64,000 nt of DNA, from contig CALRND020000007.1 of assembly GCA_943369455.1 (NCBI GenBank), forward strand, positions 115,388-179,387, written 5' to 3'. The stretch's first letter is position 1; each line of letters starts with the position of its first letter. The position numbers were made by a program, and so were the translations under genes. The notes beneath the pieces were generated by a model. That model saw only the letters and a program-made list of their open reading frames with translations. It was not told where the DNA came from and ran no database searches. Below, in pieces: positions 2,845 through 17,918 of the stretch. The DNA comes from Synechococcus sp. UW140 (lineage in GTDB: Bacteria > Cyanobacteriota > Cyanobacteriia > PCC-6307 > Cyanobiaceae).

Positions 2845-3120
2845 TTGGCCCTGGTTATGGGAGCACCTAGGAACCATCACCGCGAAGCAGGCTGTGCGTT
2901 CTGCGCGCAGGAGGGCAGCGGCCGGGTGCTGCTAGAGAAGGAGCTGGCGCTGTGCATCTCCGACGCCTATCCCGTGAGCGAGGGGCACAGCCTGGTGATC
3001 CCACGGCTGCATCAATCTGCCAGGCCGTACAGCTCAATACGCCGACGTGGTGAAGGTGACGTCAGCATGGTTGGCCAAAGGGGTGGAACGGATGCTCTTG
3101 TCCGTTCCACCGGTGGATGA
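2845..3120 (+). pseudogene. HIT-domain N-terminal fragment, copy 3 (homology about 2872-3010, then unrelated read-through)
   Basis: HHREAGCAFCAQEGSGRVLLEKELALCISDAYPVSEGHSLVIPRLH. No histidine triad follows. Retains a 39-nt segment (ELALCISDAYPVS) that copies 1 and 2 lack. Confidence 0.6.
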
Positions 3121-3910
3121 GGTCAAGACGTTGGCCTGGCCTCCCCATCGGTTAAGGGACGAGAGGTGACTGGAGCAGAACACCAGCACCCGGAAAAGGG
3201 TTGGCTACAGCCACTGCATGCACACGCCGCAAGGTATCCCAGCAGGGGCGATGGCCTGCCGGACTGGCAGTTGACCACGAGCGCCATCGCAGCCGGGTCA
3301 ATCCAGCAGCCTGCCACTCAGGTTTTGTGAATGAAACTGCTAGTCAGATATCCAGATCCTCGTTGATAAGGCGACTTTTAATGCGCTGACCCTTGGCTAG
3401 GATCAACTCCCAGAAAAAAGCCAAGAATCTCCTGGCCTGCGTGAACAAGGATGTGCATAGTTGGTCTTGTAAACGATAGGCGATTGTTAGATTTTACCTG
3501 GGAATGTGGCATGGAAAGCGAAGAGATCGCCGCTCTCAGCAAAGACAACCGACAGACATGGAATTAAATCAAGACATCGGAATGCCTTCAACTGGGTAGC
3601 GGGCCTAATTCAGATTTTGACATTTTCTTAACAGTTAGCCAGGCAGAATGGTGTCCTTCACGGCCTAGTGAAACCGCCCCATTGAACTCCAGGTGCTCGT
3701 TCTTGCATGAGCCCCAACGAAAGACGAAAGGGCAATGCCTAAATTGTATGCATGAGAAGAATCGACAGGATTAAAGTAGATATCCATATATCCATGTCAG
3801 CACTGCTTGACATTGACATGCTAGCCATCAAACTAGATCATCTATCAAAGCACAGCAATTAATCGCGCACGCCGGCCCAAACCAGAGCGAAGCCGCCGTC
3901 CACCAATAGT

Positions 3911-6900
3911 TCACTTATGGAGTTCAATATCAAAACAAACTGTCTCCCCAACACCCTTCGAAAAACTTTCATGATTAAACTTCCTTGGCTCAACATACCA
4001 TACTTCTGAAACACGGGTTGCTGCGGCAAGAGCTGCAAAGGCAACGGCATGAATCTTAGATCCCGTGAGGCCAACTTCAACATTGGCTCCACTTCGAAAG
4101 TAAAGATCACAATAGATCTTCTCGATTTCTTCCAGTGTCTTTTTAAGATCGTTTGATCCTACTTGAATCAAACCAACATTAGCTTCGGCAGCACTTGCCG
4201 CGAGTTCAGCGGCAAACCAAGCTATGCGGCGGCGAGGCGAATCCTTGGGAGGAACAAGTATGCGAGTTGCGTCACTTGACCGAGCATCTAGCAGATGTAA
4301 CAGCCTATCATTCTTAGGAGATGCTGAAGCAATAAGCGCACGCCATCGCTCTGGACTTGCAGCACTTGAATGAACGCTGAAGTGTCTGTAAGGCCCAACC
4401 TCGCCAGTCAATATGTCATCAAGTGAAGCGAGTACATCATTTGATAATAAATTTCCCTCGAGGACCCCCCGATCAACGAGCTCTTGGTTACTTGGAAAGT
4501 ACTCCATTGCAGAGGTATGGACAACTCCAACACGCCGAGTGCTGACAAGGGCATTCATAATCGAGACGAAGATATATGGCTTTGAAAGTCCAGAGGTGTC
4601 TACAATTATAGACTCGCCCTTGATATTGGCCTGAACATCATCGACGCTACCGACAACTATCAGTTCAAGGTTTAAGCTTGATACATACTTTAGAATATCT
4701 GCGCCCTGATTAGTGTCATACTGCAAGAGAATTACCCTTTTAGGAGTAACTGTAGCCAAAAGTCTCTCCGCCGAAGCCTTGGCTCTCTCTTCGAAGCCAA
4801 GAGCCAAAAGCACAGTATCGACATCACGCCCTGCCCATGATTCGAGCACTCCATGGTTGATACTAATTCCAAGAGATGGCACGCATAAACCATCCGCAAT
4901 CAACACGCTTGAGCTAAGATCATTAACTTTTTCGATTATACTTAGTTGCCTGGTTTGGACACGGTTTACTGATTTCGAGATCTTAGTATTCTTGCCATTT
5001 TGCTTTACTAAAGCAGGCTTAGACACCTCTCCTTCCTTAGAACTGTTTGCATTGGCGTCTGATACACTTCCAGAATTAGTCGCCCGACGCGCCTCACTTT
5101 CAATTAATATATTCTTGGCATTCTCTGGATGCTCTAACCACTCTCTGAGCGTGTTTCCAGACAACTCGAATCGATCACGGTCAGAAAGCCCTATAAAGCT
5201 AGCAAGTCCCAGGGTCTTTCTATAAGAAAGCTTGAACTGTAGGACAGGATCATCGTCACGTGTCTTGGTTCTTGGCACTCCACCATCGTAAACAAAGACA
5301 CCAGTATCAAGAAGGTCAAGAATCATACGATATATCTTATCAAAGTCATGCCCAGCATCAACGCGCACGTACAACTTCGTGTATTGTCGCAGTCGCACTT
5401 GGTTTGCAGATAGTTTTAGTAGCTCACCAGCCGCTTGCGCAAAAGCTAGAGCTAGCCCCTTTTTGTGCTGATCACGCCTATTCAGATTATGCAATAAGTG
5501 TGCTGAATGCTCAAGAAAACAGTCAGTTTGTCTCTCATCAGAAACGGGGAGACTGCAACTGTCTCCATCGACTTGCTGAAGAATCTTTTCATAGAGCCTT
5601 AGAACATCGCCGATATCGCCTACGCAGACTGCTTGCAATGCCCGTAGCCCTCTATAGACACGTTTGCGCTCTCTTGAGGTAGCAGAAGAATTGGCAATTT
5701 CTCTGGCAATTACTTCTAGTTCTACGTCACCAAGAACTTCTCTTGGCTCAGCCTTATAAAGGGGATTGCGCCCACTTAGTTTTTGGCCCTTTCTCCGGAG
5801 AATCTCCTCTACAAACTTCATCTTCTGTTGAGTTGAACTCTTCCTCAGAAGACCATAGACTTCGTTTCCGAGATCGAATTCTTCGTAATCACGGTTAGGG
5901 TCAGCAGGGGCTTCGCCACCAGGGGACAGGAGAACACGGTGAAGCGCCTGTGCTTCAGTCGTAATGCGAAAGGCGCAATGGGCATGCTGAAAAAGGAGCT
6001 TTGAAATGACTTCCCGGACAGTATCCTCACTTAGATATCTAGTTGAGACATCATCCAATAGATAAAGAATGTACTTTTGATTGAAAGCCGGTGCCGCTGC
6101 CCTCAACACATCCGCAAGATAACTAAACGCATCTGCGGGCGCCATCTTTAGCCTATAATCCGAGGTTTCATCGGCAAGCTGGAACTGAAGGTCAATCAGA
6201 AAATCGTCAAACGCATGCTCGCCCGAACCTGGAATTCTCTCGAGCGGAATATCTAGTGGCTTCAGTGCATCTCTTAAAAGCATATCAATGCTATCCAATA
6301 AGCCGCCTGATTCTATGGAGCGTAAATGTCGGAGAACCTGTATGCCGTCGCGAAGGTATGCAACATACAGCCTCTCGAAAGGCGCACTGATAGTCGATGC
6401 ATTATCTTGTGGATTGAGTAACTTTTGGCAGGACGAATAAATACCAATAAAATCGTCACTCTTATATCCTGCGGTCATATCATCCGGCGTTGTGGCACGT
6501 GCATGAAAATGCAAGGCACGCAAAAGAATCGTTTTACCACAGCCTCGCATTCCTGTTATTACTTGAGGGCCACGGCCTGACGTCTTTGCCATCCACCTAC
6601 CCTCAGGGTCGAACCATAGGTCAGGCACATGCCAAGACTCAAGAGTTTGAGCGTTATAGCCATCTCCAAATCGTTGCAATTGAAGTGGTACACGCCAAGG
6701 TTCATCGGCTGCATTAACCGCTGCTTCAATAGCAGCTCGTGCTTCATCGCGTGTCATCATTCGCTGTGAACCCGCAGGAGGAGCAAGATGCTCAGCAAGC
6801 CCGCGCAGAGCACTCGCCAATCGATAATCAATATCACTAGAATCTTGGAGCGCCTTGGCAAGAGAAAATAGGTGCTTAGCGATTTGATGCTGGTCACCAA

Positions 6901-7576
6901 GACGATTGGAATCGGAATCGCTTTTACTTGCATCAAGAACTGAACCTAGATCAATCGCCACCGCACGCGTAGTTTCATCAATAGCACTTGATCTATAGGA
7001 TTCTCTCGCAAGACTTTCGATTAGGATATTGCCATCATGAAGATCATTATGGAAGCTTTTGTTCTCGGTAAAATAGTGGAAGATCTCAAATAGGTCGGCT
7101 CCAATCTGAGCCGCCATGCGTGATGTAAGCTTTCGTACTCCGCCTTGCCCTTTAATGAGCTGACCTAATGTAGGGCCTTCTACATTTTTAAGCACCGCGA
7201 CGTGGCATCGAAGTACTGAGTCCCCAAAAGAAACATCTGAATCAAATTTGTCTGTTATGTCAGCTACTAATGTCGAGCCCTCTCCAAGTCTTGCATGCTC
7301 TCTGCACTCTTCATTCCAATCCTTCGCGAAGTATTCGTAGACTTGAGTTGGAACAACTTTGAGGACAACTACTCTGCCAAGCGCCAACTGCTCGGCTCGG
7401 TATACAACACTGTAGAAGCCGCGTGAAACTGCATGCTTTATCTTGTAATTCTCAATCTGACTAGGTTTGTCATGCAATGGCAGCTCATAGGGGCGACCGC
7501 AGGAAGGACAACATTCATTGGGCGTTCTTTCAGAGTAATCCTGAGAAGGACACCAAAAGCAACATAGACTAGGCAT
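3911..7576 (-). CDS. Large multidomain protein: CxxC..CxxC zinc ribbon + protein-kinase-like domain + P-loop NTPase + C-terminal tandem Rossmann-like module
   Basis: Start taken at ATG 7576 (MPSLCCFWCP), which overlaps the upstream stop. Motifs: CCFWCP..CCPSCG (7499-7564); VVLKV Lys; HNDLHDGN catalytic loop (7028-7051); DLG (6944-6952); Walker A GMRGCGKT (6530-6553); Walker B ILYLLDD (6050-6070). Confidence 0.85.
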   Translation of the reverse strand: MPSLCCFWCPSQDYSERTPNECCPSCGRPYELPLHDKPSQIENYKIKHAVSRGFYSVVYRAEQLALGRVVVLKVVPTQVYEYFAKDWNEECREHARLGEGSTLVADITDKFDSDVSFGDSVLRCHVAVLKNVEGPTLGQLIKGQGGVRKLTSRMAAQIGADLFEIFHYFTENKSFHNDLHDGNILIESLARESYRSSAIDETTRAVAIDLGSVLDASKSDSDSNRLGDQHQIAKHLFSLAKALQDSSDIDYRLASALRGLAEHLAPPAGSQRMMTRDEARAAIEAAVNAADEPWRVPLQLQRFGDGYNAQTLESWHVPDLWFDPEGRWMAKTSGRGPQVITGMRGCGKTILLRALHFHARATTPDDMTAGYKSDDFIGIYSSCQKLLNPQDNASTISAPFERLYVAYLRDGIQVLRHLRSIESGGLLDSIDMLLRDALKPLDIPLERIPGSGEHAFDDFLIDLQFQLADETSDYRLKMAPADAFSYLADVLRAAAPAFNQKYILYLLDDVSTRYLSEDTVREVISKLLFQHAHCAFRITTEAQALHRVLLSPGGEAPADPNRDYEEFDLGNEVYGLLRKSSTQQKMKFVEEILRRKGQKLSGRNPLYKAEPREVLGDVELEVIAREIANSSATSRERKRVYRGLRALQAVCVGDIGDVLRLYEKILQQVDGDSCSLPVSDERQTDCFLEHSAHLLHNLNRRDQHKKGLALAFAQAAGELLKLSANQVRLRQYTKLYVRVDAGHDFDKIYRMILDLLDTGVFVYDGGVPRTKTRDDDPVLQFKLSYRKTLGLASFIGLSDRDRFELSGNTLREWLEHPENAKNILIESEARRATNSGSVSDANANSSKEGEVSKPALVKQNGKNTKISKSVNRVQTRQLSIIEKVNDLSSSVLIADGLCVPSLGISINHGVLESWAGRDVDTVLLALGFEERAKASAERLLATVTPKRVILLQYDTNQGADILKYVSSLNLELIVVGSVDDVQANIKGESIIVDTSGLSKPYIFVSIMNALVSTRRVGVVHTSAMEYFPSNQELVDRGVLEGNLLSNDVLASLDDILTGEVGPYRHFSVHSSAASPERWRALIASASPKNDRLLHLLDARSSDATRILVPPKDSPRRRIAWFAAELAASAAEANVGLIQVGSNDLKKTLEEIEKIYCDLYFRSGANVEVGLTGSKIHAVAFAALAAATRVSEVWYVEPRKFNHESFSKGVGETVCFDIELHK

Positions 7577-8822
7577 TAATGACCTCCATTTGTTGGTCCA
7601 AATCAACGGATACCAAGATACTACTAGAATTATCTGCAAGCGTGCTGAAGGCTGATTTAACTCTAGAGATCACATCAACAATGTCAAGGCACGTATCGCA
7701 GCGCAGAGTTGCAATTGGTTGATCTGCAACTACAGCCTCTCCAGGCATGACGAGAAGTTTTACTCCTGCAGGGTCTTTGAAACAATTATGGCCGTCCACA
7801 GTCTGCATAGATACAAGAACATCGCGTAAGCGGGCCAGATTAATCTGAAAGAAACCCGAAGACTCGGCTTTCAAGGTAAAGCGTGGGGCAGAGAGAATCT
7901 GTTTAGTGCGGTCAATAAATACATGGATTGACGTACCTTGAGCTATAAGGTGACTTTCAAATACTCTACGTGCATCGCAAATCATATTTGGAGATAGGCG
8001 CTCTTGTTCATGACGTTCGAGATCGGGACTGTCAGACATGCAAGCTGCCATACAATAGCAATCAATGGAATGATTTTCAAGCCAGATCTCGTCATCATCA
8101 TAAGGCAATAGATTTAACACTTTAGCGAGTGCAACAAGGCTTTCACCACGGCCGATCCATGGCTGTAAAGGAGCCATTTTCACGCCGAGGAACGCAACTG
8201 CAGAAATGCCAAGCAGACGAGCCGCCTCACAAAACATCGTGGCATTCTTTCGTGCCTCCGCTCTTGATTTGCCGAAGTTACCGTGGGAACCTATTCTAAT
8301 ATCTAAACCCACACATTTAACACCTACAGCGAGCTTTTTTGCCAGTAAGCTTGCTGCAGCAAGAACTGGAATTGCCACAGCATCATGTCTACGTCGACAC
8401 ATAAATAGAGACGCATCAAGTGGTGCAAAGCGGCTATCAGCGAGAAAATGAGCGTACCCGCAGTCTTCTATTACCTTGTGTACTTCATCAGAGGCCAACT
8501 GGACCTTGTATCCCTCAAGTGTGCCGAGACTGTCAATCGCACCTGCCGGTCTGCCAGGGACAGCTAGTTTTGCAACTTGAAATCCCATGACTCTCAGCCA
8601 CAGTGGACCCAACAAAGTCGAAAGCGAAGCTGGTCCACCTGTAGATGCGATGTCTGCAACGTTGTAGTGATCACCCCATTGTAGTTTCTCTCCGCTTGCT
8701 GCCAAGTGCTTCGCTAGACGTGCAACTTCAAATGCATCTAACGGGCAGTTGCGTGCCACTTCAATCAACTTTAAGAACTGTTCTTCATCACATTTAGTAG
8801 GTAGCGGAAGAAAGCTTGTCAT
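7569..8822 (-). CDS. Divergent thymidine phosphorylase / glycosyltransferase family 3 (PRT-like) protein
   Basis: 417 aa. DIASTGGPAS (8634-8654) corresponds to the DKHSTGGVGD loop and VPGRPAGAIDSLGTLEGY to SGRGLGHTGGTLDKLE of E. coli DeoA. C-terminal LLVMPGEAVVADQPIATL resembles the PYNP C-terminal domain. Confidence 0.75.
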   Translation of the reverse strand: MTSFLPLPTKCDEEQFLKLIEVARNCPLDAFEVARLAKHLAASGEKLQWGDHYNVADIASTGGPASLSTLLGPLWLRVMGFQVAKLAVPGRPAGAIDSLGTLEGYKVQLASDEVHKVIEDCGYAHFLADSRFAPLDASLFMCRRRHDAVAIPVLAAASLLAKKLAVGVKCVGLDIRIGSHGNFGKSRAEARKNATMFCEAARLLGISAVAFLGVKMAPLQPWIGRGESLVALAKVLNLLPYDDDEIWLENHSIDCYCMAACMSDSPDLERHEQERLSPNMICDARRVFESHLIAQGTSIHVFIDRTKQILSAPRFTLKAESSGFFQINLARLRDVLVSMQTVDGHNCFKDPAGVKLLVMPGEAVVADQPIATLRCDTCLDIVDVISRVKSAFSTLADNSSSILVSVDLDQQMEVINA

Positions 8823-8834
8823 GCTGGTAGTGTT

Positions 8835-9917
8835 TTAATCATTACTTGCAAGCCACGAGTCTACGTCTACTGCTATCTCCTCCTGAAATGATTTCCGAAT
8901 CTCAGCGGCATGAGCCATGATAAATGGGGGAGGAAGAGCATTGCCAATCATTAATGCTATAGCAGTCTTGTTGTTTACAGTAGGGAAGATGTAACCCTTA
9001 GGGAATCCCTGAAGTAAAGATGCTTCCCGCATAGTGACTGCCCGGTTCTGGTCGGGATGCAAGAAACGACCCTTAGAAGGATTGAAGCAGCCACTTGTAA
9101 TTGTAGGAGCCTGTGATCCCCACGACATTCGGCCATATATATCATAGAACCCATCACATCTCCGATGGCATTCAAGTTGTTCATCTTTTGAGAGACTAGA
9201 GCGGCTTCCACCATCATGTGGAATGCGGCCAATCAGATCAAGGATCCTCTTGCTTCGTCGTTCTGGAATGTCATGCACGGGATCACCGCTTGCGCCGGGA
9301 GTAGGCAGCATCCCAATAGCGTCCCGTACTGTATACTTTTGAGGGGAAGGTGGTGCAAATCGAATACTCTTCCCCAATCCAGCAATATAGATTAGCCTAT
9401 GGCGACGTTGCGGAACTCCATAGTCAGCTGCATTCAGAACCCTGTGATGCCCATGGTACCCAAATCGCTTCATCGATCTACAGAATTGCGAAAAGCGATG
9501 ATCATTTTGAAGGCCGGGAACATTCTCAAGCATCACCGCCCTAGGACGCAGCTCCTTTGCAAATCTCAGGAATTCGAAGAGAAGGTCGTTGCGTGCATCA
9601 TCTACGCATAGAGGACGATTTAATGCTCTCAGTTTTGAGAATCCTTGGCATGGCGGACACCCAGCCAATAGGTCGAGTTTTCCTTTTCGTAGTCCAATTT
9701 GCTTCTTAAGGCTACTAACCCCAAGCTTCTTGATGTCTGTGTGAAAAACTCTTACATCTGAGTGATTAGCGCTATATGTTTCTACTGAAGATTCATCAAC
9801 TTCAACAGCAGCAAGAACGCGAAATCCTGCTTGCTTCAGCCCCAATGTCAACCCCCCGCAACCGCTGAAAAGGTCGACCGCAGCAAAGTGGTTGTCAATG
9901 GCTGCCTGATCCTGCAT
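8835..9917 (-). CDS. DNA (cytosine-5)-methyltransferase
   Basis: Motif I FSGCGG (9852-9869), motif IV PPCQGFS (9636-9656), ENVPGL, QRRHRLIYIAG, GNALPPPF. Start set at ATG 9917 (GGAGG 13 nt upstream), 15 aa before motif I. The ORF is open up to TTG 10055. Confidence 0.9.
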   Translation of the reverse strand: MQDQAAIDNHFAAVDLFSGCGGLTLGLKQAGFRVLAAVEVDESSVETYSANHSDVRVFHTDIKKLGVSSLKKQIGLRKGKLDLLAGCPPCQGFSKLRALNRPLCVDDARNDLLFEFLRFAKELRPRAVMLENVPGLQNDHRFSQFCRSMKRFGYHGHHRVLNAADYGVPQRRHRLIYIAGLGKSIRFAPPSPQKYTVRDAIGMLPTPGASGDPVHDIPERRSKRILDLIGRIPHDGGSRSSLSKDEQLECHRRCDGFYDIYGRMSWGSQAPTITSGCFNPSKGRFLHPDQNRAVTMREASLLQGFPKGYIFPTVNNKTAIALMIGNALPPPFIMAHAAEIRKSFQEEIAVDVDSWLASND

Positions 9918-10260
9918 CCTTGAAGTGGTTCCTCCGTTGCCACTATACGCTCTGATCTTTGATTTTTGTCTGATCTGTCTGCATTCATCTCGCGACTGCT
10001 TGCAGGGACACAACATGCCTACGCAATCCCTTCCTTCGCCATTTGCGAAAAGCAAACCCTTAAGCAGCCGTCAGCCATTATCCAAGCCCACGATCTCGTC
10101 GTGCACATGGAGCCGACCCGCAACAGTCAAAACAAACCCTTCTGGCATGTCTGGGAGTAAGGGTCTGAATCAATACAACTTGAGTAATTGATGCCTTGAT
10201 CAGACTCAGAAATATCTGAATGGGTTTAGCCTCTATGGCAATACCAGCAAGATTAAGCAA

Positions 10261-12847
10261 GCTCCGCCCAGCGGATCGACCTGCTCTGCGCCTTCATCAA
10301 GTTCAGCGGCCTGCGCCTGCTCCAGCCGGCCCTCAGCGAGTTCCTGCAGGCCGAGCCCCGCCGCCCGTTGCGGGTGCTCACCACCGTCTACCTGGGCGCC
10401 ACCGACCGCCGCGCCCTCGATTGGCTGGTGGCTCACGGCGCCAAGGTGCGCGTCAGCTACGACACCCGCCGCACCCGCCTGCACGCCAAAGCCTGGCTGT
10501 TCCATCGGCCGGGCCTCTCGGGCGCCACCCTTTCCTCCACCGCCTACATCGGCTCCTCCAACCTCTCCACCGCCGCCCTGCACGACGGCCTGGAGTGGAA
10601 CGTGCGCCTCTCCGCCCACGACAACGAGGGCATCCTGGCCAAGTTCCAGGCCGCCTTTGAGAGCTACTGGGAGGAGGGCGAGTTCGAGCCCTACCGGGCC
10701 AGCGAACTGGAGCAGCGCCGCTTTGATCGGGCCGTGCGCGAGGAGTCGGCGGGGGACGCGGCGTTGGACGCCACCCCGCTCAGCTTCTTCGACATCCGCC
10801 CCTACCCCTACCAGCAGGAGATCCTCGACAAGCTGTCGGCCGAGCGCAGCCTCCATGGCCGCTGGCGCAACCTGGTGGTGGCCGCCACCGGCACGGGCAA
10901 AACCGTGGTCGCCGCCCTCGATTACGCCCGCCAGGCCGGTCCTGGTCACCCGAGCCTGCTGTTCGTGGCCCACCGGCGCGAGATCCTGCAGCAGAGCCTC
11001 GCCACCTTCCGCCAGGTGCTGCGCGATGGCTCCTTCGGCGAGCTGCTGGTGGATGGCCAGCGCCCCAGCCAGTGGCGCCACGTGTTCGCCTCGGTGCAGT
11101 CGCTCGCTGGGCTGGATCCGGCCGACCTGGCGCCAGACACGTTCGCCGTGGTGATCGTCGATGAGTTCCACCACGCCGCCGCCGCCAGGCCTCACCGCCA
11201 CCCCCGAGCGCACCGGCGGCGAGGACATCCTCCATTGGTTCGATGGCCGCATCGCAGCCGAGCTGCGCCTCTGGAGCGCCTTGGAGCAGGGCCTGCTCTG
11301 CCCCTTCCACTACTTCGGCCTCCACGACGGCACCGACCTCTCGCAGATCGAGTGGCGCCGCAACGCCTACGCCACAGAAGCCCTGTCCAACCTCTACACC
11401 GCCGACGACGCCCGCCTGCGCCTGATCCTGCGCGAACTGGCAGACAAGGTCACCAACCTGGATTCGATGCGGGCCCTGGGCTTCTGCGTGAGCGTGGAGC
11501 ACGCCCATTGGATGGCCCGCAAGTTCGTGGCCGCCGGCCTGCGCGCCGCTGCCCTAGATGCGTCCAGCCCCCGGGACGAGCGCGCCGAGCAGATCCGCCG
11601 CCTGCGCTCCGGCGAGCTGCAGATCCTGTCTGCGGTGGATCTGTTCAACGAAGGCCTCGACATCCCTGAGATCGACACGGTGCTGTTCCTGCGGCCCACC
11701 GAGAGCGCAATCGTGTTCCTGCACCAGCTTCGACCTGCGCTACCGCGCCCTGCTCGGTGGCACGCGCGACCAGCTGGAGCAGCAGATCAACGACGGGTTT
11801 CCCTTCCTGCCGGCCGGCTGCAGCCTGCAGCTCGATCGGGTGTCGAGCGAGCGGGTGCTTGCCAATCTGCGCGAGTCGCTGCCCACGCGCCGGCCCCAGC
11901 TGCTCGCCGAAGCTCACCGCCTCGGGCGCTGTTCGCTGGCGGGGTTGCTGGAGGGGCTCGGGATGGAGCTGGGGGAGTTTTACAAGGTGGCGGGGTCGTG
12001 GGCGTTGTTGCAGCGGGAGTTGGGGTGGGTGGCCTCGGTGGAACCCTCCGAGGATGAGTGGCGACTGGGACGGGGGATCGCCGGGGGGCTGCTGCATCTG
12101 GACGACCCCGAGCGGTTGCACTGGCTGGCGGGCCAACTGCAGCGGCCCATCGCGCCCGATCCGGCGGACTTCGATCCCGCCACCGAGCGCCGCTGGCGCA
12201 TGCTGATGGCCCAGCTCTGGGGCAGCGGCCGGCAGCACGTGCCCCTGGCCGAGGCCCTCGTCCGGCTCTGGGCCGCCGCCGACCTCCGCGCCGAACTGGT
12301 GGAGCTGTTCGCGCTGCTGCTCGAGCGCACCGACCACCTGGTGGCGCCGCTCGACTGGGACCGCGCCGATCCGCCCCCCATCCCCCTCAAACTCCACGGC
12401 CGCTACTCCCGCGCCGAGGTGTTCGCCGCGTTTGGGCTGCTGAACGAGGCCCGCCCTTTCCCCGGCCGGGAGGGGGTGTTCTTTGACGAAGCCACCCAGT
12501 GCGACGTCTTCTTCATCACCCTCAAGAAGTCCGAGCGCCTGTTCTCCCCCACCACCCGCTACAACGATGTCGCCATCTCCCCATGGGAGTTCCACTGGGA
12601 GAGCCAGAGCCTCACCCGGGAAGCGTCCGCCACCGGGCAGAGATACATCCACCACGTTGAGCGCGGCAGCCGGGTGATGCTGTTCGTGCGGGAGGAAAGC
12701 AAGCGCGGCGGGGTGACGCTGCCGTTTCTGGGCCTGGGGTTCGCGGATTACGTGAGCCATGAGGGCGAGCGGCCGATGGCGATTCGCTGGCGGTTGCACA
12801 GGGCGATACCGGCGGCGTTTGTGCCGGAGTTGGCGTTGGCGGTTTGA
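10261..12847 (+). pseudogene. PLD-nuclease / SF2 helicase / DUF3427 protein, 5'-truncated with two internal frame-breaking deletions
   Basis: RLHAKAWLF..GSSNLS (PLD HxK), VVAATGTGKT, VDEFHH, then a frame change to GLTATPERTGGEDILHWFDGRI. ..LFLRPTESAIVFLHQL, then a second frame change to FDLRYRALLGG..DUF3427-like C-terminus ending LALAV. The reading frame is open right up to the island edge, with no start codon. Confidence 0.75.
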
Positions 12848-13302: not shown

Positions 13303-13570
13303 GTCGTTGCCCCTTGCGGTAAGCGCTGATCTCCTCGTTGATCTCTCGCCGGGTCAGAACCTCTGGCGGGTCAGCAGCAAGAGCAGCCCTGGCGTCTTGC
13401 AGACGGACAATGCGGTCTGAGGCCAGCTTGTCCCGCAGCAGGCGCTCGATCGCTTCTGGCGCCAGCAGGCCGGCTCCGCTGGCTTCCGCCGCCAGCGCAT
13501 CAGGGAGGGTGATCTCGATGGTGGTCAAGCGTGCACCCCAACCATGCTTGCCTCTGAGGGTAGCCGGCAT
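13286..13570 (-). CDS. Antitoxin partner of the PIN toxin (start uncertain: ATG 13570 or TTG 13528)
   Basis: ..LTTIEITLPDALAAEASGAGLLAPEAIERLLRDKL..EINEEISAYRKGQ. Small, overlaps the toxin start. The N-terminal part of the 152-aa ORF is antisense to helicase copy B. Confidence 0.55.
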   Translation of the reverse strand: MPATLRGKHGWGARLTTIEITLPDALAAEASGAGLLAPEAIERLLRDKLASDRIVRLQDARAALAADPPEVLTRREINEEISAYRKGQRLAAGS

Positions 13571-13595
13571 CTCCGCCCAGAGGTACAGCCCACAG

Positions 13596-14201
13596 GCCAC
13601 GCCGCGAGCAGATCCGCCGCCTGCAGGCCAGCACCTGCCCCTGGCCGAGGCCCTCGTCGGGCTCTGGGCCGCTGCCGACCTCCGCGCCGAGCTGGTGGGC
13701 CCGCTTGACTGGGGCCGCGCCGATCCGCCCCCCATCCCCCTCAAACTTCACGGCCGCTACTCCCGCGCCGAGGTGTTCGCCGCCTTTGGGCTGTTGAACG
13801 AGGCCCGCCCCTTCCCCGGCCGGGAGGGCGTGTTTTTTGATGAGGCCACCCAGTGCGACGTCTTCTTCATCACCCTCAAGAAGTCGGAGCGACTGTTCTC
13901 CCCCACCACCCGCTACAACGACGTCGCCATCTCCCCGTGGGAGTTCCACTGGGAGAGCCAGAGCCTCACCCGCGAAGCGTCCACCACTGGGCAGCGATAC
14001 ATCCACCACCGAGAGCGCGGCAGCCGGGTGATGCTGTTCGTGCGGGAGGAGAACAGGCGTGGTGGGGTGACGCTGCCATTTCTGTGTCTGGGGTTCGCGG
14101 ATTACGTCAGCCACGAGGGCGAGCGGCCGATGGCGATTCGCTGGCGGTTGCACCGGGCGATTCCGGCGGCGTTCGTGCCGGAGTTGGCGTTGGCGGTTTG
14201 A
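13596..14201 (+). pseudogene. Second copy (B) of the helicase 3' end (DUF3427 region), internally deleted
   Basis: About 40 mismatches over about 560 hand-aligned nt versus 12232-12847, plus a 45-nt gap (ELFALLLERTDHLVA missing). At 13596-13625 a short EQIRRL-coding piece (compare 11585-11605) is fused directly to the QH(V/L)PLAEAL region. Confidence 0.7.
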
Positions 14202-14223: not shown

Positions 14224-14448
14224 GTGGAAATGGCTGATTCGCGCATCACCCTCAACCCAGCCCAGTGCGGCGGCAAGCCCTGCATCAGAGGGATGCGGAT
14301 CAGCGTGAGCGATGTGCTCGACCTTTATTCAGCTGGGCTTTCCCCCGATCAGATCCTCTCGGAGCTTCCTGATCTTGAGCCGGAAGATCTCAAGGCGGCC
14401 CTGAGCTACGCCGCCCGCGAGTTGAACCATCCTGTTCTGGTGGCGTGA
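14224..14448 (+). CDS. DUF433 family antitoxin-like protein
   Basis: 74 aa. NPAQCGGKPCIRGMRISVSDVLDLYSAGLSPDQILSELPDLEPEDLKAALSYA is the DUF433 signature. Confidence 0.75.
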   Translation: MEMADSRITLNPAQCGGKPCIRGMRISVSDVLDLYSAGLSPDQILSELPDLEPEDLKAALSYAARELNHPVLVA

Positions 14449-14629: not shown

Positions 14630-14797
14630 TGCCCGTGGCTCGCGGATGCAACGGAAACCACGATGGCGAGCGAACCGCGTTGACCGAAGAGTGGCGATCC
14701 GTTGGCGGCTGGAGCGGGCGATCCCGGCTGCGTGGCTGCACGGCTGTTGTGTGACACAGCAGCTGTTCCTCGCCATCCCTGGCGTTGGCGGTTTAGC
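14630..14797 (+). pseudogene. Third, strongly diverged copy (C) of the helicase 3' terminus
   Basis: ..VAIRWRLERAIPAA.. and terminal CTGGCGTTGGCGGTTTAG (LALAV-stop) parallel 12770-12847 and 14125-14201. Confidence 0.45.
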
Positions 14798-14834
14798 GTC
14801 ATCCCAGGCCTCTCCTGAGCATTCACTGCCGGCC

Positions 14835-15131
14835 ATGGACGTCAGTTCCGAAACCTTGATCAGCCAGTTGCGCCAGCACGCGCCCATCTGGAGTGAGCGT
14901 TTCGGCGTGCGCAGCCTGCGGATCTTCGGCTCCTGGGCCCGTGGCACGGCAACACCGAGCAGCGATGTGGATCTGCTGGTGGCCTTCGACGGCCCTGCCA
15001 CCGCCAGACGCTTCTATGGCCTCCAGCTGTTCCTGGAAGACCTGCTCCAACAACCTGTCGATCTGGTGACGGAACAAGCACTCCGGCAGGAGCTCAGGCC
15101 TGCGGTGGAGGCGGATGCCATCACCCTCTGA
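14835..15131 (+). CDS. Nucleotidyltransferase (MNT-type antitoxin)
   Basis: 98 aa from ATG 14835. FGSWARGTATPSSDVDLLV (GSx..DxD) motif. Confidence 0.8.
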   Translation: MDVSSETLISQLRQHAPIWSERFGVRSLRIFGSWARGTATPSSDVDLLVAFDGPATARRFYGLQLFLEDLLQQPVDLVTEQALRQELRPAVEADAITL

Positions 15132-15471
15132 CGGCAGTCCGAAACGTGACTGGCGCCTTTATGCGCAGGACATGGATCGGTTTGCCTGTCGTGCCGTGGG
15201 CTACTGCGCTGATCTGAACCGTGCGCAGTTCGAGGCGAACCAGCTGATGCAGGATGCCGTTCTTCGCAACATCGAGCTGATCGGCGAAGCCGCCACTCGC
15301 ATCCCAGAGGAGGTGAGGCTCGCCCATACTGAGATCCCCTGGCGGGAAATCATCGCCATGCGCAATCAACTCATCCACGCCTACCTGGGGGTCGATCTTG
15401 ATGTGGTGTGGGATGTGATCCAGGTGGAATTGCCGCTGCTGATCCTTCAGCTGAAGGCTGTGATGGCCTGA
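15115..15471 (+). CDS. HEPN (DUF86) toxin
   Basis: 118 aa. RNQLIH (Rx4H) motif. 17-nt overlap with the MNT gene. Confidence 0.8.
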   Translation: MPSPSDGSPKRDWRLYAQDMDRFACRAVGYCADLNRAQFEANQLMQDAVLRNIELIGEAATRIPEEVRLAHTEIPWREIIAMRNQLIHAYLGVDLDVVWDVIQVELPLLILQLKAVMA

Positions 15472-15523: not shown

Positions 15524-17299
15524 TCAGGACGAACAGCTGTAGTGGGACACCCCTCCGGCGTTGAAGAATTCCAGGGGCTTCAGACGGTCATAGGTCGCCA
15601 CCAGCTCCGCAGGCAGCGCTTTGTAGGGATGGCGGAACACCTCCTGCAGCTCCCTGACCAGGCCGTAGTCACCCTGCGCCGCCTGTGCATAGGCCGGGGC
15701 GATCAGCCATTCGCGCCAGGTGATGGCGGGATTGACGCGCTTCATCGCTGCCGATGTCTCGCGGGGGTCGCCGGAGTCGGTGACCTGATGCCGCCAGCGT
15801 TGCAGCCAGCTCGTCCATTGCCCTTCGAGCTCCTCTGAGCAGGGCAGGTAGAAGCTCTCCTGCAGGGCCGAAACCTGCTCGGGGATATCCGAAAGCCTGC
15901 GGAAGAAGATCGTGACGTCCGCCTTGGAGGCCACCATCAGCTGCAGCAGGTCCTGCACCAGCTCGGCGTCGTAGCGGATCAGGCCGAGCTTGCGGGCCCA
16001 CATCGCGTCGAGCGCCTGGCCCATCGCTTCGGCGAAGCCGTCGTGGATCTCATCAAGCCTGGCCAGGGCCTTTGGATTGCCCTCGAGAAGGGGCCGCAGA
16101 GCGGCCCAGAACATCTGGTAGTTGGCTTCGGCGGCCACCGGCTGGTTGAAGAAGGAGAAATGCTGCCCGCCGCCGGTCCAGGGCTGGAAGCGGGGGTCGA
16201 ACAGTTCGCAGAAGCCGAAGGGGCCGTAGTCGAGGGTGTAACCACCGGCGGCGCAATTGTCGCTGTTGAAATTGCCCTGGCAGTAGCCCACCCGCATCCA
16301 GTGCGCCACCAGAGACGTGAGCCGGCCGCGGAACAACCCCGCCAGCTCCACCACCTGATCAACGAAGTCCAGGGCCGGATCAATCTCCTGGCGGTAGTTG
16401 CGCTCGATCAGGTGCGCCACGATCATCCGCAGTTCGTTCAGCGCCTCCGGATGGGCACCGCTGCGTGCGCGTCGGGCGAACAGCTCCAGCTGGCCCACCC
16501 GCAGGAAGGACGGGGCCACCCGTGTGCTGATCGCCGCCGGGTTGTCCACCAGGATGTCGGGATCGAACGAGCGGGAGTTCGGCGCATACCAGGGCCGGCG
16601 CACCGTTTCCGATCCAGACACATAGAGCGTCAGCGAGCGGGAGGTGGGCACCCCCAGGGCGTGCATGAACTCCTGCGCCAGAAACTCGCGCACGCTGGAG
16701 CGCAGCACGGCGCGGCCATCGGCGCCGCGGCAGTAGGGCGTGGGGCCGCCGCCCTTGAGCTGCATCTCCCAGCGCCGGCCATTGAAGACGCCTTCGAACA
16801 CGGACATGGCCCGGCCGTCGCCGTAACCGTTGCCGGTGCCGAACGGGCACTGCTGGATGTATTCGCTGCCGTAGATCGAGAGGGCATACCCAGTGGCCCA
16901 GCCATAGGGCCGCATCGGCGCCTGCGCCGCCGTGATGTCACCGGAGAACAGTCGGCGGAAGTGCTCGTCGTGGGCGAGCTCATCGCCCAGGCCCAGCTCC
17001 TGGAAAAGGGTTTGGCTGAGCGCCACCAGCTCCGGCGCCGGCAGCGGGGTGGGCGTCACCGGCACGTAATGCCCGGAGAACACCTGGCGGGGCCGGTGAT
17101 CCTGGCCATCAGCGGTGGCCTGGGGATCCGGCCGTAGGGCATCCAGCAGCGAATAATTCGCCTTTTGGGCAAACCCCGCGAACGTTGTCGTCAGTTCTGC
17201 AGTCGGCACGGTGGTGGACGCTGCTGTGGGCACGGCGGTCGTCACGGGTCTCTCGGGTGTGGCGCGGCCCGGGCAGGGCCCTGACGCTGGGGTCCCCAT
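15524..17299 (-). CDS. selO: Protein adenylyltransferase SelO (YdiU/UPF0061)
   Basis: [64 protein letters not shown]. Start set at ATG 17299, because the longer ORF overlaps the Uma2 gene with Trp/Cys/Arg-rich text. Confidence 0.85.
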
Positions 17300-17336
17300 C
17301 CTGGCGAGCTGAGCCCGTACAGCGCCTGATCCCAGA

Positions 17337-17918
17337 TCAACCGTCCCAGATCTCCGCCAGCTCCAGCCGCAGGCCCGGCAGCTCCGGCTCCCCGTCCAGC
17401 ACCGCCAGCCCCTCCAGCCGCTGCGGTTCGCCGCTGGCGCTCCACACCTCCACACCGCGGCTTTCGGGCAGCAGCAGCCAGCCCAGCCTGGCCCCATTCG
17501 CCTGGTAGGTGTCCATCTTGCGTCGCAGATCCGGCAGCCGGTCCGATGGGCTCGCGAGCTCCACCACCAGATCGGGGCAGAGGGGCGGAAAGCCCTGGCG
17601 ATCGGCGCTGGAAAGGGCCTGCCAGCGATCCAGCCGCACGGCGCTGGCATCCGGACTCAGCACGGAGCCATCAGGCAGCAGGAAACCTGTGGAACTGTCG
17701 AACACGCACCAGCCGGGCTGGAGGCGGGCCCACAGACCCAGCTGCACAGCCAGCTGGTTGTTCCGCCGTCCGGTTTCGCCACCTGCAGGGGTCATCTCGA
17801 TCAACCGCCCGTCCGCCGCCAGCTCCAGCACCGCCTCCGGATTCGCCGCACAGAGATCGGCAAACTGGGCCGGAGTAAGCCGCAGCGCTGCGCTCAGTTG
17901 GCGGGGCAGGGTGAGCAT
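17337..17918 (-). CDS. Uma2 (DUF820) family endonuclease
   Basis: [54 protein letters not shown] is typical of the cyanobacterial Uma2 family. Confidence 0.8.

Follow-up and report, generated by a model that had tools for sequence, protein, structure and literature searches.

What is the function of three closely packed genes occupying an AT-richer island in the genome of a picocyanobacterium? This question was addressed for a 64,000 nt stretch of DNA from Synechococcus sp. UW140 (contig CALRND020000007.1, positions 115,388–179,387), referred to here as the window, with all coordinates counted from its first nucleotide. An original prediction, made from the sequence of this DNA, had described the three genes as co-directional on the minus strand and as a candidate undescribed methylation-linked defence or DNA-modification system. 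The open reading frames (ORFs), coordinates and GC profile agree with the layout given there:

8835–9917, minus strand: C5-methyltransferase (MTase) gene, 360 aa from the ATG at 9917, with the ORF being open to 10055
7569–8822, minus strand: thymidine-phosphorylase-like (TP-like) gene, 417 aa
3911–7576, minus strand: gene for a giant protein, 1,221 aa from the ATG (coordinates with stop codon included), with the ORF extending to a TTG at 7639

The stop codon of the MTase gene (8835) has a 12 nt spacing to the ATG of the TP-like gene (8822), and the TAG stop codon of the TP-like gene and the ATG of the giant gene share the 8 nt overlap ATGCCTAG (7569–7576), both as originally reported. Hundreds of homologues were found for each of the three genes, which indicates that all three are real genes. 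The GC content of positions 3501–10000 is 0.44–0.50, compared with 0.59–0.73 to the right of the island and 0.63–0.68 far to the left, and the island has 46% GC versus approximately 66% for the picocyanobacterial genome around it. The RecA protein encoded elsewhere in the window shares 98–99% identity with its counterparts in Cyanobium gracile and in Synechococcus spp. from fresh water, and as a low-GC island inside a high-GC picocyanobacterium the segment is therefore foreign DNA, best read as a horizontally acquired copy of a widespread module. The comparative data described below point to a methylation-linked, nuclease-free sensor-kinase defence module with the large sensor-effector protein as its core, a reading to which we assign a probability a little below one half.

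Conservation of the three-gene module

A genome scan with the TP-like family as seed, using one genome per species, gave 80 loci that span Acidobacteriota, Bacteroidota, Pseudomonadota, Actinomycetota, Planctomycetota, Verrucomicrobiota, Nitrospinota, metagenome-assembled genomes (MAGs) of Firmicutes and one archaeal MAG. A full-length giant gene was located directly downstream of the TP-like gene in 76/77 assessable loci, 72 of them with both genes on the same strand (three of the four loci without a giant end at a contig edge, hence the 77 assessable out of 80). In its overlap of TP-like and giant genes the window is typical of the family: the distance between the two genes is −8 nt in 26/46 scorable loci and falls in the range of −14 to +2 nt in 44/46. 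C5-MTase genes (E < 1e-20, within 10 kb) were detected near the module in 61/80 loci, with a variable placement: directly upstream (23 loci), further upstream (20), directly downstream of the giant (11) or further downstream (7), and 37 of these 61 MTases belong to the close clade of the window MTase (E < 1e-90). MTase divergence follows giant divergence (Spearman 0.47, Mantel p 0.005; 0.57 for the TP-like and giant proteins), with occasional swaps. The T:G mismatch endonuclease Vsr was encoded in 43/80 loci, and the other recurrent annotated neighbours were genes of defence islands, namely Z1, HATPase_c_3, DUF4420, UvrD-PD-(D/E)XK and BrxL. There were no cas genes among the annotated recurrent neighbour families of the 80 loci, besides which two small clusters lacked a Pfam match and several others were unannotated, with no dedicated Cas10 hidden Markov model (HMM) search being run on all loci; the island of the window also contains no cas-like gene.

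The reciprocal scan was seeded with the giant in metagenomes, and gave approximately 41 assessable true family members. A TP-like gene was found upstream of the giant in 28 of these, and about 13 (about one third) had no TP-like gene within 7 kb. A C5-MTase was still present in 10/13 of the latter loci, some of which are compact MTase-giant-Vsr operons (L083, L117, L119 and L127). The giants lacking a TP-like partner are scattered among TP-containing clades in at least seven lineages, with TP-containing nearest neighbours at 50–70% identity. Both scans together show a one-sided dependence, of the TP-like gene on the giant and not the reverse, with the methylase accompanying both forms. Homologues of the three genes thus do co-occur elsewhere, in both genome and metagenome loci, which was a check set in the original prediction, and the view that the trio forms a tightly coupled and conserved module within defence islands is supported.

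Predicted domain architecture of the giant protein

The giant protein matched the PADLOC model PDLC01925 (CARF6--CARF_STK_AAA) with E = 0 and 1137.6 bits (residues 1–1218 versus profile positions 1–1185 of 1187), and belongs to a family of 655 homologues with a length of approximately 1210–1260 aa. The model name presumably originates from the CARF census of 2020. Residue invariance was assessed in an alignment of 36 homologues, and Foldseek searches were performed with two AlphaFold2 (AF2) models, covering residues 300–860 (predicted local distance difference test score, pLDDT, 79) and residues 840–1221 (pLDDT 85, predicted template modelling score 0.83). The following domains were distinguished:

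7487–7576, minus strand: Zn-ribbon (residues 1–30), with C6, C9, C23 and C26 invariant or nearly so in the 36 homologues
6677–7459, minus strand: Ser/Thr protein kinase (residues ~40–300), matching PADLOC PD-T4-6 models down to 5e-11 and Pfam Pkinase at 0.005
5072–6661, minus strand: AAA+ ATPase of the Orc1/Cdc6 type (residues ~306–835) that includes a helical lid and a small alpha/beta domain resembling a winged helix, matching Pfam PF24389 (ORC-CDC6-like) at 3.7e-27
4355–4882, minus strand: CARF domain (residues ~899–1074), with the invariant signature D993-x-S995-x-x-x-K999
3914–4342, minus strand: second Rossmann-like alpha/beta domain (residues ~1079–1221), with invariant S1086, K1088, R1091 and T1171-G-x-K1174

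The kinase domain is active-looking, with the full set of catalytic residues (K73, E90, H176-N-D178, N183 and D209-L-G211) being invariant. The residues named in the original prediction (D199, N204 and K369) carry numbers that are higher by 21 than those counted from the ATG, and correspond to D178, N183 and K348. The Walker A motif GMRGCGK348T, which has Arg344 inside the P-loop, and the Walker B residues D508-D509 are also invariant, and the top Foldseek matches for residues 300–860 were the archaeal Orc1/Cdc6-DNA structure 2QBY, the RADAR ATPase RdrA (8HR8) and ORC subunits. Residues 917–1021 matched the PADLOC model CARF6--CARF_CARF_CARF, and the CARF region, modelled with pLDDT >90, gave as best Foldseek match Can1 (6SCE, E 5e-7, Foldseek probability 1.0), followed by Csm6 (9W3U, 5FSH and 8JBC, Foldseek probability ~1.0). 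Can1 is a type III CRISPR nuclease activated by cyclic tetra-adenylate (cA4), with two CARF domains in one chain. On the basis of the modelled fold and the [DN]x[ST]xxx[RK] signature, residues ~899–1074 are assigned as a CARF domain. The second Rossmann-like domain packs on the first in the confident AF2 model, for which the best overall match is the two-CARF protein Can1. An internal duplication was rejected, as hhalign found no similarity between the two C-terminal domains, and in view of this lack of profile similarity the label of second CARF is a tentative one that is based on structure.

A hidden nuclease in the giant was likewise rejected, with AF2 and Foldseek showing no nuclease fold over residues 300–1221. 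The original prediction had treated the giant as a plain kinase/NTPase, thereby overlooking the CARF sensor and the Orc1/Cdc6-type module, and their presence changes the mechanistic picture. Distant relatives of the giant (22–24% identity, ~860–890 aa) were found at loci L136–L143 (for example L139:3179–5761 and L141:6452–9124); these have kinase and/or ORC-like regions and lack the CARF region and the TP-like, MTase and Vsr partners, and they may represent a sister family with a different sensor.

A divergent phosphorylase-fold protein

The TP-like family profile matched the pyrimidine-nucleoside phosphorylase (PyNP) structure 1BRW over ~370 residues (44–421, E 3e-39), and the protein itself matched NCBIfam TP at 9e-29. 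The best curated score, 100.4 bits for NF004490, compares with a cutoff of 269, and the 88.8 bits obtained for TIGR02644 with a cutoff of 409; scores this far below the curated cutoffs indicate that none of the characterised phosphorylases is an orthologue of the protein. No PADLOC model matched it. The triad contacting the pyrimidine base (R143/S158/K162, equivalent to Arg168/Ser183/Lys187 of PyNP) is invariant in 34 TP-like sequences and the STGG motif is kept in the family. Of the phosphate-binding residues Lys81, His82, Ser83, Lys108, Ser110 and Thr120 of PyNP, only S83 and K108 are kept, with K81 being replaced by I, V or L, H82 by A or P, S110 by A (or P) and T120 by A. The Gly loop is two residues shorter than that of PyNP and the N-terminal helical domain is shortened compared with TP/PyNP. 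The family has 48 invariant columns, many of them charged, with D57, R91, D97, H125, D136, R176, Q220, R225, E227, H251 and C255 as family-specific invariants. Judged by its sequence, the protein is a divergent member of the thymidine/pyrimidine-nucleoside-phosphorylase fold that falls outside the bona fide TP/PyNP enzymes.

In one of the two hypotheses of the original prediction this protein was the effector, a nucleoside- or nucleotide-cleaving enzyme switched on by the giant kinase/NTPase, with archaeal AMP phosphorylase as a precedent; the purine nucleoside phosphorylase (PNP) effector of Detocs is comparable. Its tight translational coupling with the giant and the invariant columns, which suggest a functional pocket, are consistent with such a role, as is the fact that nucleotide depletion is a known defence strategy. 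The absence of the TP-like gene from about one third of the giant-seeded loci, in at least seven independent lineages, implies that another output exists, which together with the replacement of Lys81, His82, Ser110 and Thr120, the shortened Gly-rich loop and the lack of a PADLOC Detocs match makes this role unlikely. As about one third of systems do without it, an accessory role fits the TP-like protein better than that of an obligate effector.

The most divergent TP-like protein (32% identity) was found at L079:7870–11170, the sole locus that has room for a giant and does not contain one. It is encoded in a three-gene operon with an unknown 374-aa protein and an ImmA/IrrE M78 peptidase (capP-like), adjoined by a BamHI-like endonuclease, which may point to another defence setting of the TP-like enzyme family.

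The C5-methyltransferase

The MTase matched Pfam PF00145 over its full length (1.3e-60), TIGR00675 dcm above cutoff (7e-48), and the PADLOC models MTase_II (4e-85) and DruM2 (1e-83). Its translation contains all catalytic motifs (FSGCGG, PPCQ, ENVPG, QRRHR and GNALPPP), and it has the signature of an ordinary, intact Dcm-type C5-cytosine enzyme. The operon does not constitute a type II restriction-modification (R-M) system, as it contains no recognisable restriction endonuclease and the giant has no nuclease fold. It also does not constitute a Dcm-Vsr pair in the window, where the MTase is present and neither Vsr nor a Vsr remnant was found (tblastn of 65 Vsr proteins against the 1.1-kb gap downstream of the giant, best E 0.08). 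The absence of Vsr noted in the original prediction thus holds for the window, but not for the family, of which Vsr is a frequent partner. Many related loci carry Vsr at the position that corresponds to 3121–3910 of the window, a segment of ~790 nt downstream of the giant stop codon without a notable ORF, and a terminator-like hairpin is located downstream of the giant on the minus strand (3438–3418). At L103:1415–2863, directly upstream of the TP-like gene, a single 483-aa ORF matches both the C5-MTase and Vsr queries, and looks like either a fusion of Dcm with Vsr or a read-through.

A C5-MTase adjoining an enzyme with a fold for reversible base/sugar transfer could also mean, as originally suggested, that the product of the trio is a cytosine with a further modification or an exchanged base in the DNA, and base-exchange systems such as Dpd do exist. 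No positive evidence for this was obtained: a kinase-ORC-CARF sensor is unexpected in a biosynthetic pathway, many lineages do without the TP-like protein, the neighbourhoods contain no further recurrent modification enzymes, and the TP fold closes over free nucleosides rather than duplex DNA. We therefore regard a role in DNA modification as highly improbable.

Proposed mechanism

In the proposed sensor-kinase module, the MTase would mark host DNA as self, and the giant would engage nucleic acid through its ORC-like ATPase/winged-helix module, with its predicted CARF domain(s) reading a nucleotide- or nucleoside-type signal. The giant would then phosphorylate host or phage proteins, which would arrest infection without a nuclease. 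The TP-like protein may tune the signal in that it produces, edits or destroys a ligand of the pyrimidine-nucleoside type or related metabolite, analogous to the tuning of cyclic oligoadenylate (cOA) signalling by ring nucleases. Ring nucleases are dispensable accessories. This model is consistent with the invariant kinase, ATPase and CARF motifs, with the giant lacking a nuclease fold and with the recurrence of defence genes among the neighbours.

Several observations weigh against the sensor-kinase model. Its defence role is deduced from genomic context, and no signal synthase (cyclase, TIR or Cas10) is present with the module. Nine of the 80 loci have room on both sides and contain no C5-MTase within 10 kb, and at L112 and L113 the MTase close by is one half of an ordinary type II R-M pair, so that some of the MTase linkage may reflect island co-location. 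Across clades with different MTase families, no part of the giant is as conserved as its winged-helix-like middle domain, which argues against an R-M-like recognition of unmethylated DNA by specific motifs. The possible second CARF domain is tentative, its support coming from the structural model, and a tblastn search with the TP-like protein of annotated plasmid and phage collections gave no homologues.

The lack of a signal synthase would be explained if the signal came from the host DNA itself. Degradation by phage of host DNA labelled with 5-methylcytosine (5mC) would release 5-methyl-pyrimidine nucleotides or nucleosides that are absent from the normal pool, and these would act as an altered-self alarm, with the TP-like protein binding or converting the 5-methyl-pyrimidines, the CARF domain sensing the product and the kinase triggering abortive infection. 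This would account for a pyrimidine-pocket enzyme (R143/S158/K162), a C5-MTase and a small-molecule sensor travelling together, and for the MTase varying in position and orientation or being shared with other restriction genes. It is difficult to reconcile with the existence of MTase-giant-Vsr operons lacking the TP-like gene and with the nine loci without a nearby MTase, and the retained Arg/Ser/Lys triad suits a thymine- or uracil-type base with carbonyl oxygens rather than cytosine. The scheme is wholly inferential, and we consider it improbable. A broader version, in which the TP-fold enzyme makes, edits or destroys a messenger derived from pyrimidine nucleosides, possibly from 5mC-marked host DNA, and the CARF domain relays it to phosphorylation by the fused kinase/ORC-like ATPase, would be a CARF pathway without a cyclase; it is unlikely, but if true would represent a new second-messenger chemistry and an "altered-self" link of DNA methylation to nuclease-free immunity.

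As defence is deduced from context, the module could alternatively be non-antiviral, being either a selfish addiction element (methylase-linked post-segregational killing) or an epigenetic or stress-signalling kinase that accumulates in variable islands. R-M-like modules can act as addiction elements, and CARF proteins outside CRISPR, for instance RtcR, act as regulators (PMC4012209). The module recurs beside defence genes across phyla, the best matches of the kinase domain are anti-phage kinases (PD-T4-6), and by Foldseek the AAA+ domain resembles the defence ATPases RdrA and Avs3, all of which speak for defence and leave a low probability for a non-antiviral role.

Genomic setting of the island

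The flanks of the trio contain the following features:

10368–12847, right flank: gene with PLD-nuclease, ResIII-helicase, Helicase_C and DUF3427 domains, split over three frames, with the PLD domain N-terminally truncated at the island edge
14224–14448: DUF433 antitoxin-type gene, with a small overlapping ORF
14646–15131 and 15115–15471: MntA (NTP_transf_2) and HepT genes, respectively, a toxin-antitoxin pair
1917–2789, left flank, minus strand: PDC-S36/NOV_C nuclease-like gene (PADLOC PDC-S36 5e-111, Pfam NOV_C 1.4e-20)

A second DUF3427 fragment is located at 13338–14201, 0.5 kb downstream of the split PLD-helicase gene, and together these pieces look like a decayed, possibly duplicated gene of the modification-dependent restriction type. 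The island was originally thought to interrupt a decayed nuclease-helicase gene; the decay and truncation are evident, but as no matching left half of the gene was found, the island is better said to truncate it. The MntA/HepT pair and the DUF433 gene bear out the toxin-antitoxin context of the island, and are followed on the opposite strand by an unusually long SelO-family protein (708 aa, 15524–17650).

The PDC-S36/NOV_C gene is a separate candidate defence gene outside the module. The window contains three copies of a 264 nt stretch from an HNH/HIT-domain gene region (1–264, 1330–1593 and 2873–3007, with 92% and 87–91% identity), and copies 2 and 3 bracket the PDC-S36/NOV_C gene, which suggests an insertion or duplication separate from that of the MTase-TP-giant segment. 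A PDC-S36 homologue was found beside the giant in only 1/80 other genome loci, from Balneolaceae (L030:14757–15611, 2e-75), where it is located 4 nt downstream of the giant in the same order as in the window (MTase-TP-giant-S36); this shared order may reflect either chance co-location in an island or a shared ancestral island. There were no tRNAs at the island edges and neither an integration signature nor structured RNAs in the island, and promoter and terminator scans gave counts near the shuffle expectation.

Significance and comparison with known systems

To our knowledge, nearly all that is known of CARF domains concerns their role as receivers for cyclic oligoadenylates made by type III CRISPR-Cas systems. 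Here, a CARF sensor is found in a CRISPR-independent module that is widespread in many bacterial phyla and present in one archaeal MAG, contains no cyclase, has a kinase as its sole evident output, and is regularly tied to cytosine methylation and a remodelled nucleoside phosphorylase. The ligand of the module would show what else CARF domains sense, and its target how a methylation-linked system acts without a nuclease, a question shared with BREX/Pgl. The comparative data provide concrete mutants and tractable homologues for such work, for example in Pseudomonas khorasanensis (L012).

PADLOC, Pfam and NCBIfam scans of the three proteins rejected BREX/Pgl, DISARM, Detocs, Dnd and type I-IV R-M systems, in agreement with the original prediction that the trio matches no named multi-gene system. 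Druantia was rejected as only the MTase resembles DruM/DrmMII, and MADS was rejected with mad6 matching at 1e-4 and only in the kinase domain. The claim of an undescribed system stands for the neighbourhood, but not for the giant, which is covered by PDLC01925 and by a family described in 2014 (Makarova et al. 2014, Front Genet; PMC4012209). That paper described a ZnR-STK-AAA+-CARF family with an Arg within the P-loop as a "small family", without a function or partners, and proposed a role for CARF in a kinase-mediated signalling pathway. The giant of the window is a member of this family, as it has the same domain order, the P-loop Arg (GMRGCGKT) and an end-to-end HMM match. Compared with the 2014 description, the family now counts >650 members, with TP-like, Dcm-type MTase and Vsr genes as its conserved neighbours; a winged-helix-like domain preceding the CARF domain is placed in the ORC-like module, and a second Rossmann-like domain follows the CARF domain. 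The text and accessible supplements of PMC4012209 do not mention a TP, Dcm or Vsr context of the family. Full-text searches gave no literature linking a TP-like enzyme with CARF, kinase, Dcm or defence, with the 2020 CARF census (Makarova et al. 2020), which may note the neighbourhood, lying outside these searches. A 2026 survey of BREX diversity lists neither such a system nor any thymidine phosphorylase (PMC12839542). The protein family of the giant is thus already catalogued, and the combination of genes in its neighbourhood is not described in the accessible literature.

With regard to the individual proteins, the giant resembles Can1 and Csm6 in its C-terminal CARF fold, which is Rossmann-like and has the D-x-S-x-x-x-K signature in a loop, but differs in having a kinase output instead of a nuclease domain and in lacking a cyclase, and its ligand need not be a cyclic oligoadenylate. 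RtcR is a non-CRISPR CARF-AAA+-HTH regulator (PMC4012209), and in the giant, too, a CARF sensor is joined to an AAA+ ATPase and a domain of DNA-binding type. The ATPase of RtcR is of the NtrC type and serves sigma-54 activation, whereas that of the giant is of the Orc1/Cdc6 type and is combined with a kinase. The TP-like protein shares its fold, the STGG motif and the base-binding Arg/Ser/Lys triad with DeoA, PyNP and archaeal AMP phosphorylase; in contrast to these enzymes, it has other residues in place of the Lys-His in KHSTGG and of the Ser/Thr ligands of the phosphate, and is always found in a defence context rather than in nucleoside salvage. Detocs combines a DtcA/DtcB relay with a PNP-family effector, and differs from the module in that the giant matched no Detocs model and the TP-like protein no PADLOC model.

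The kinase of the giant has PD-T4-6 as its best defence-model match (5e-11), and like Stk2 and PD-T4-6 its presumed output is protein phosphorylation, although these kinases are much smaller and have no ORC-like ATPase, CARF, methylase or TP-like partners. Pgl/BREX type 2 consists of the PglW kinase, the PglX methylase, the ORC-Cdc6-like ATPase PglY/BrxC with a wHTH (winged helix-turn-helix) domain, and PglZ (PMC12839542). The module differs from it in that kinase and ATPase are fused with a CARF sensor in one protein, the methylase is a C5-cytosine enzyme rather than the N6-adenine enzyme PglX, the operon lacks PglZ, BrxA, BrxB and BrxL, and none of the three proteins matched a PADLOC BREX/Pgl model. 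What both have in common is a nuclease-free design with a Ser/Thr kinase, an AAA+ ATPase of the ORC/Cdc6 clade with wHTH, and a self-marking methylase. By analogy, the mechanistic logic of the module would most closely resemble that of Pgl/BREX type 2, with an output like that of the Stk2/PD-T4-6 kinases.

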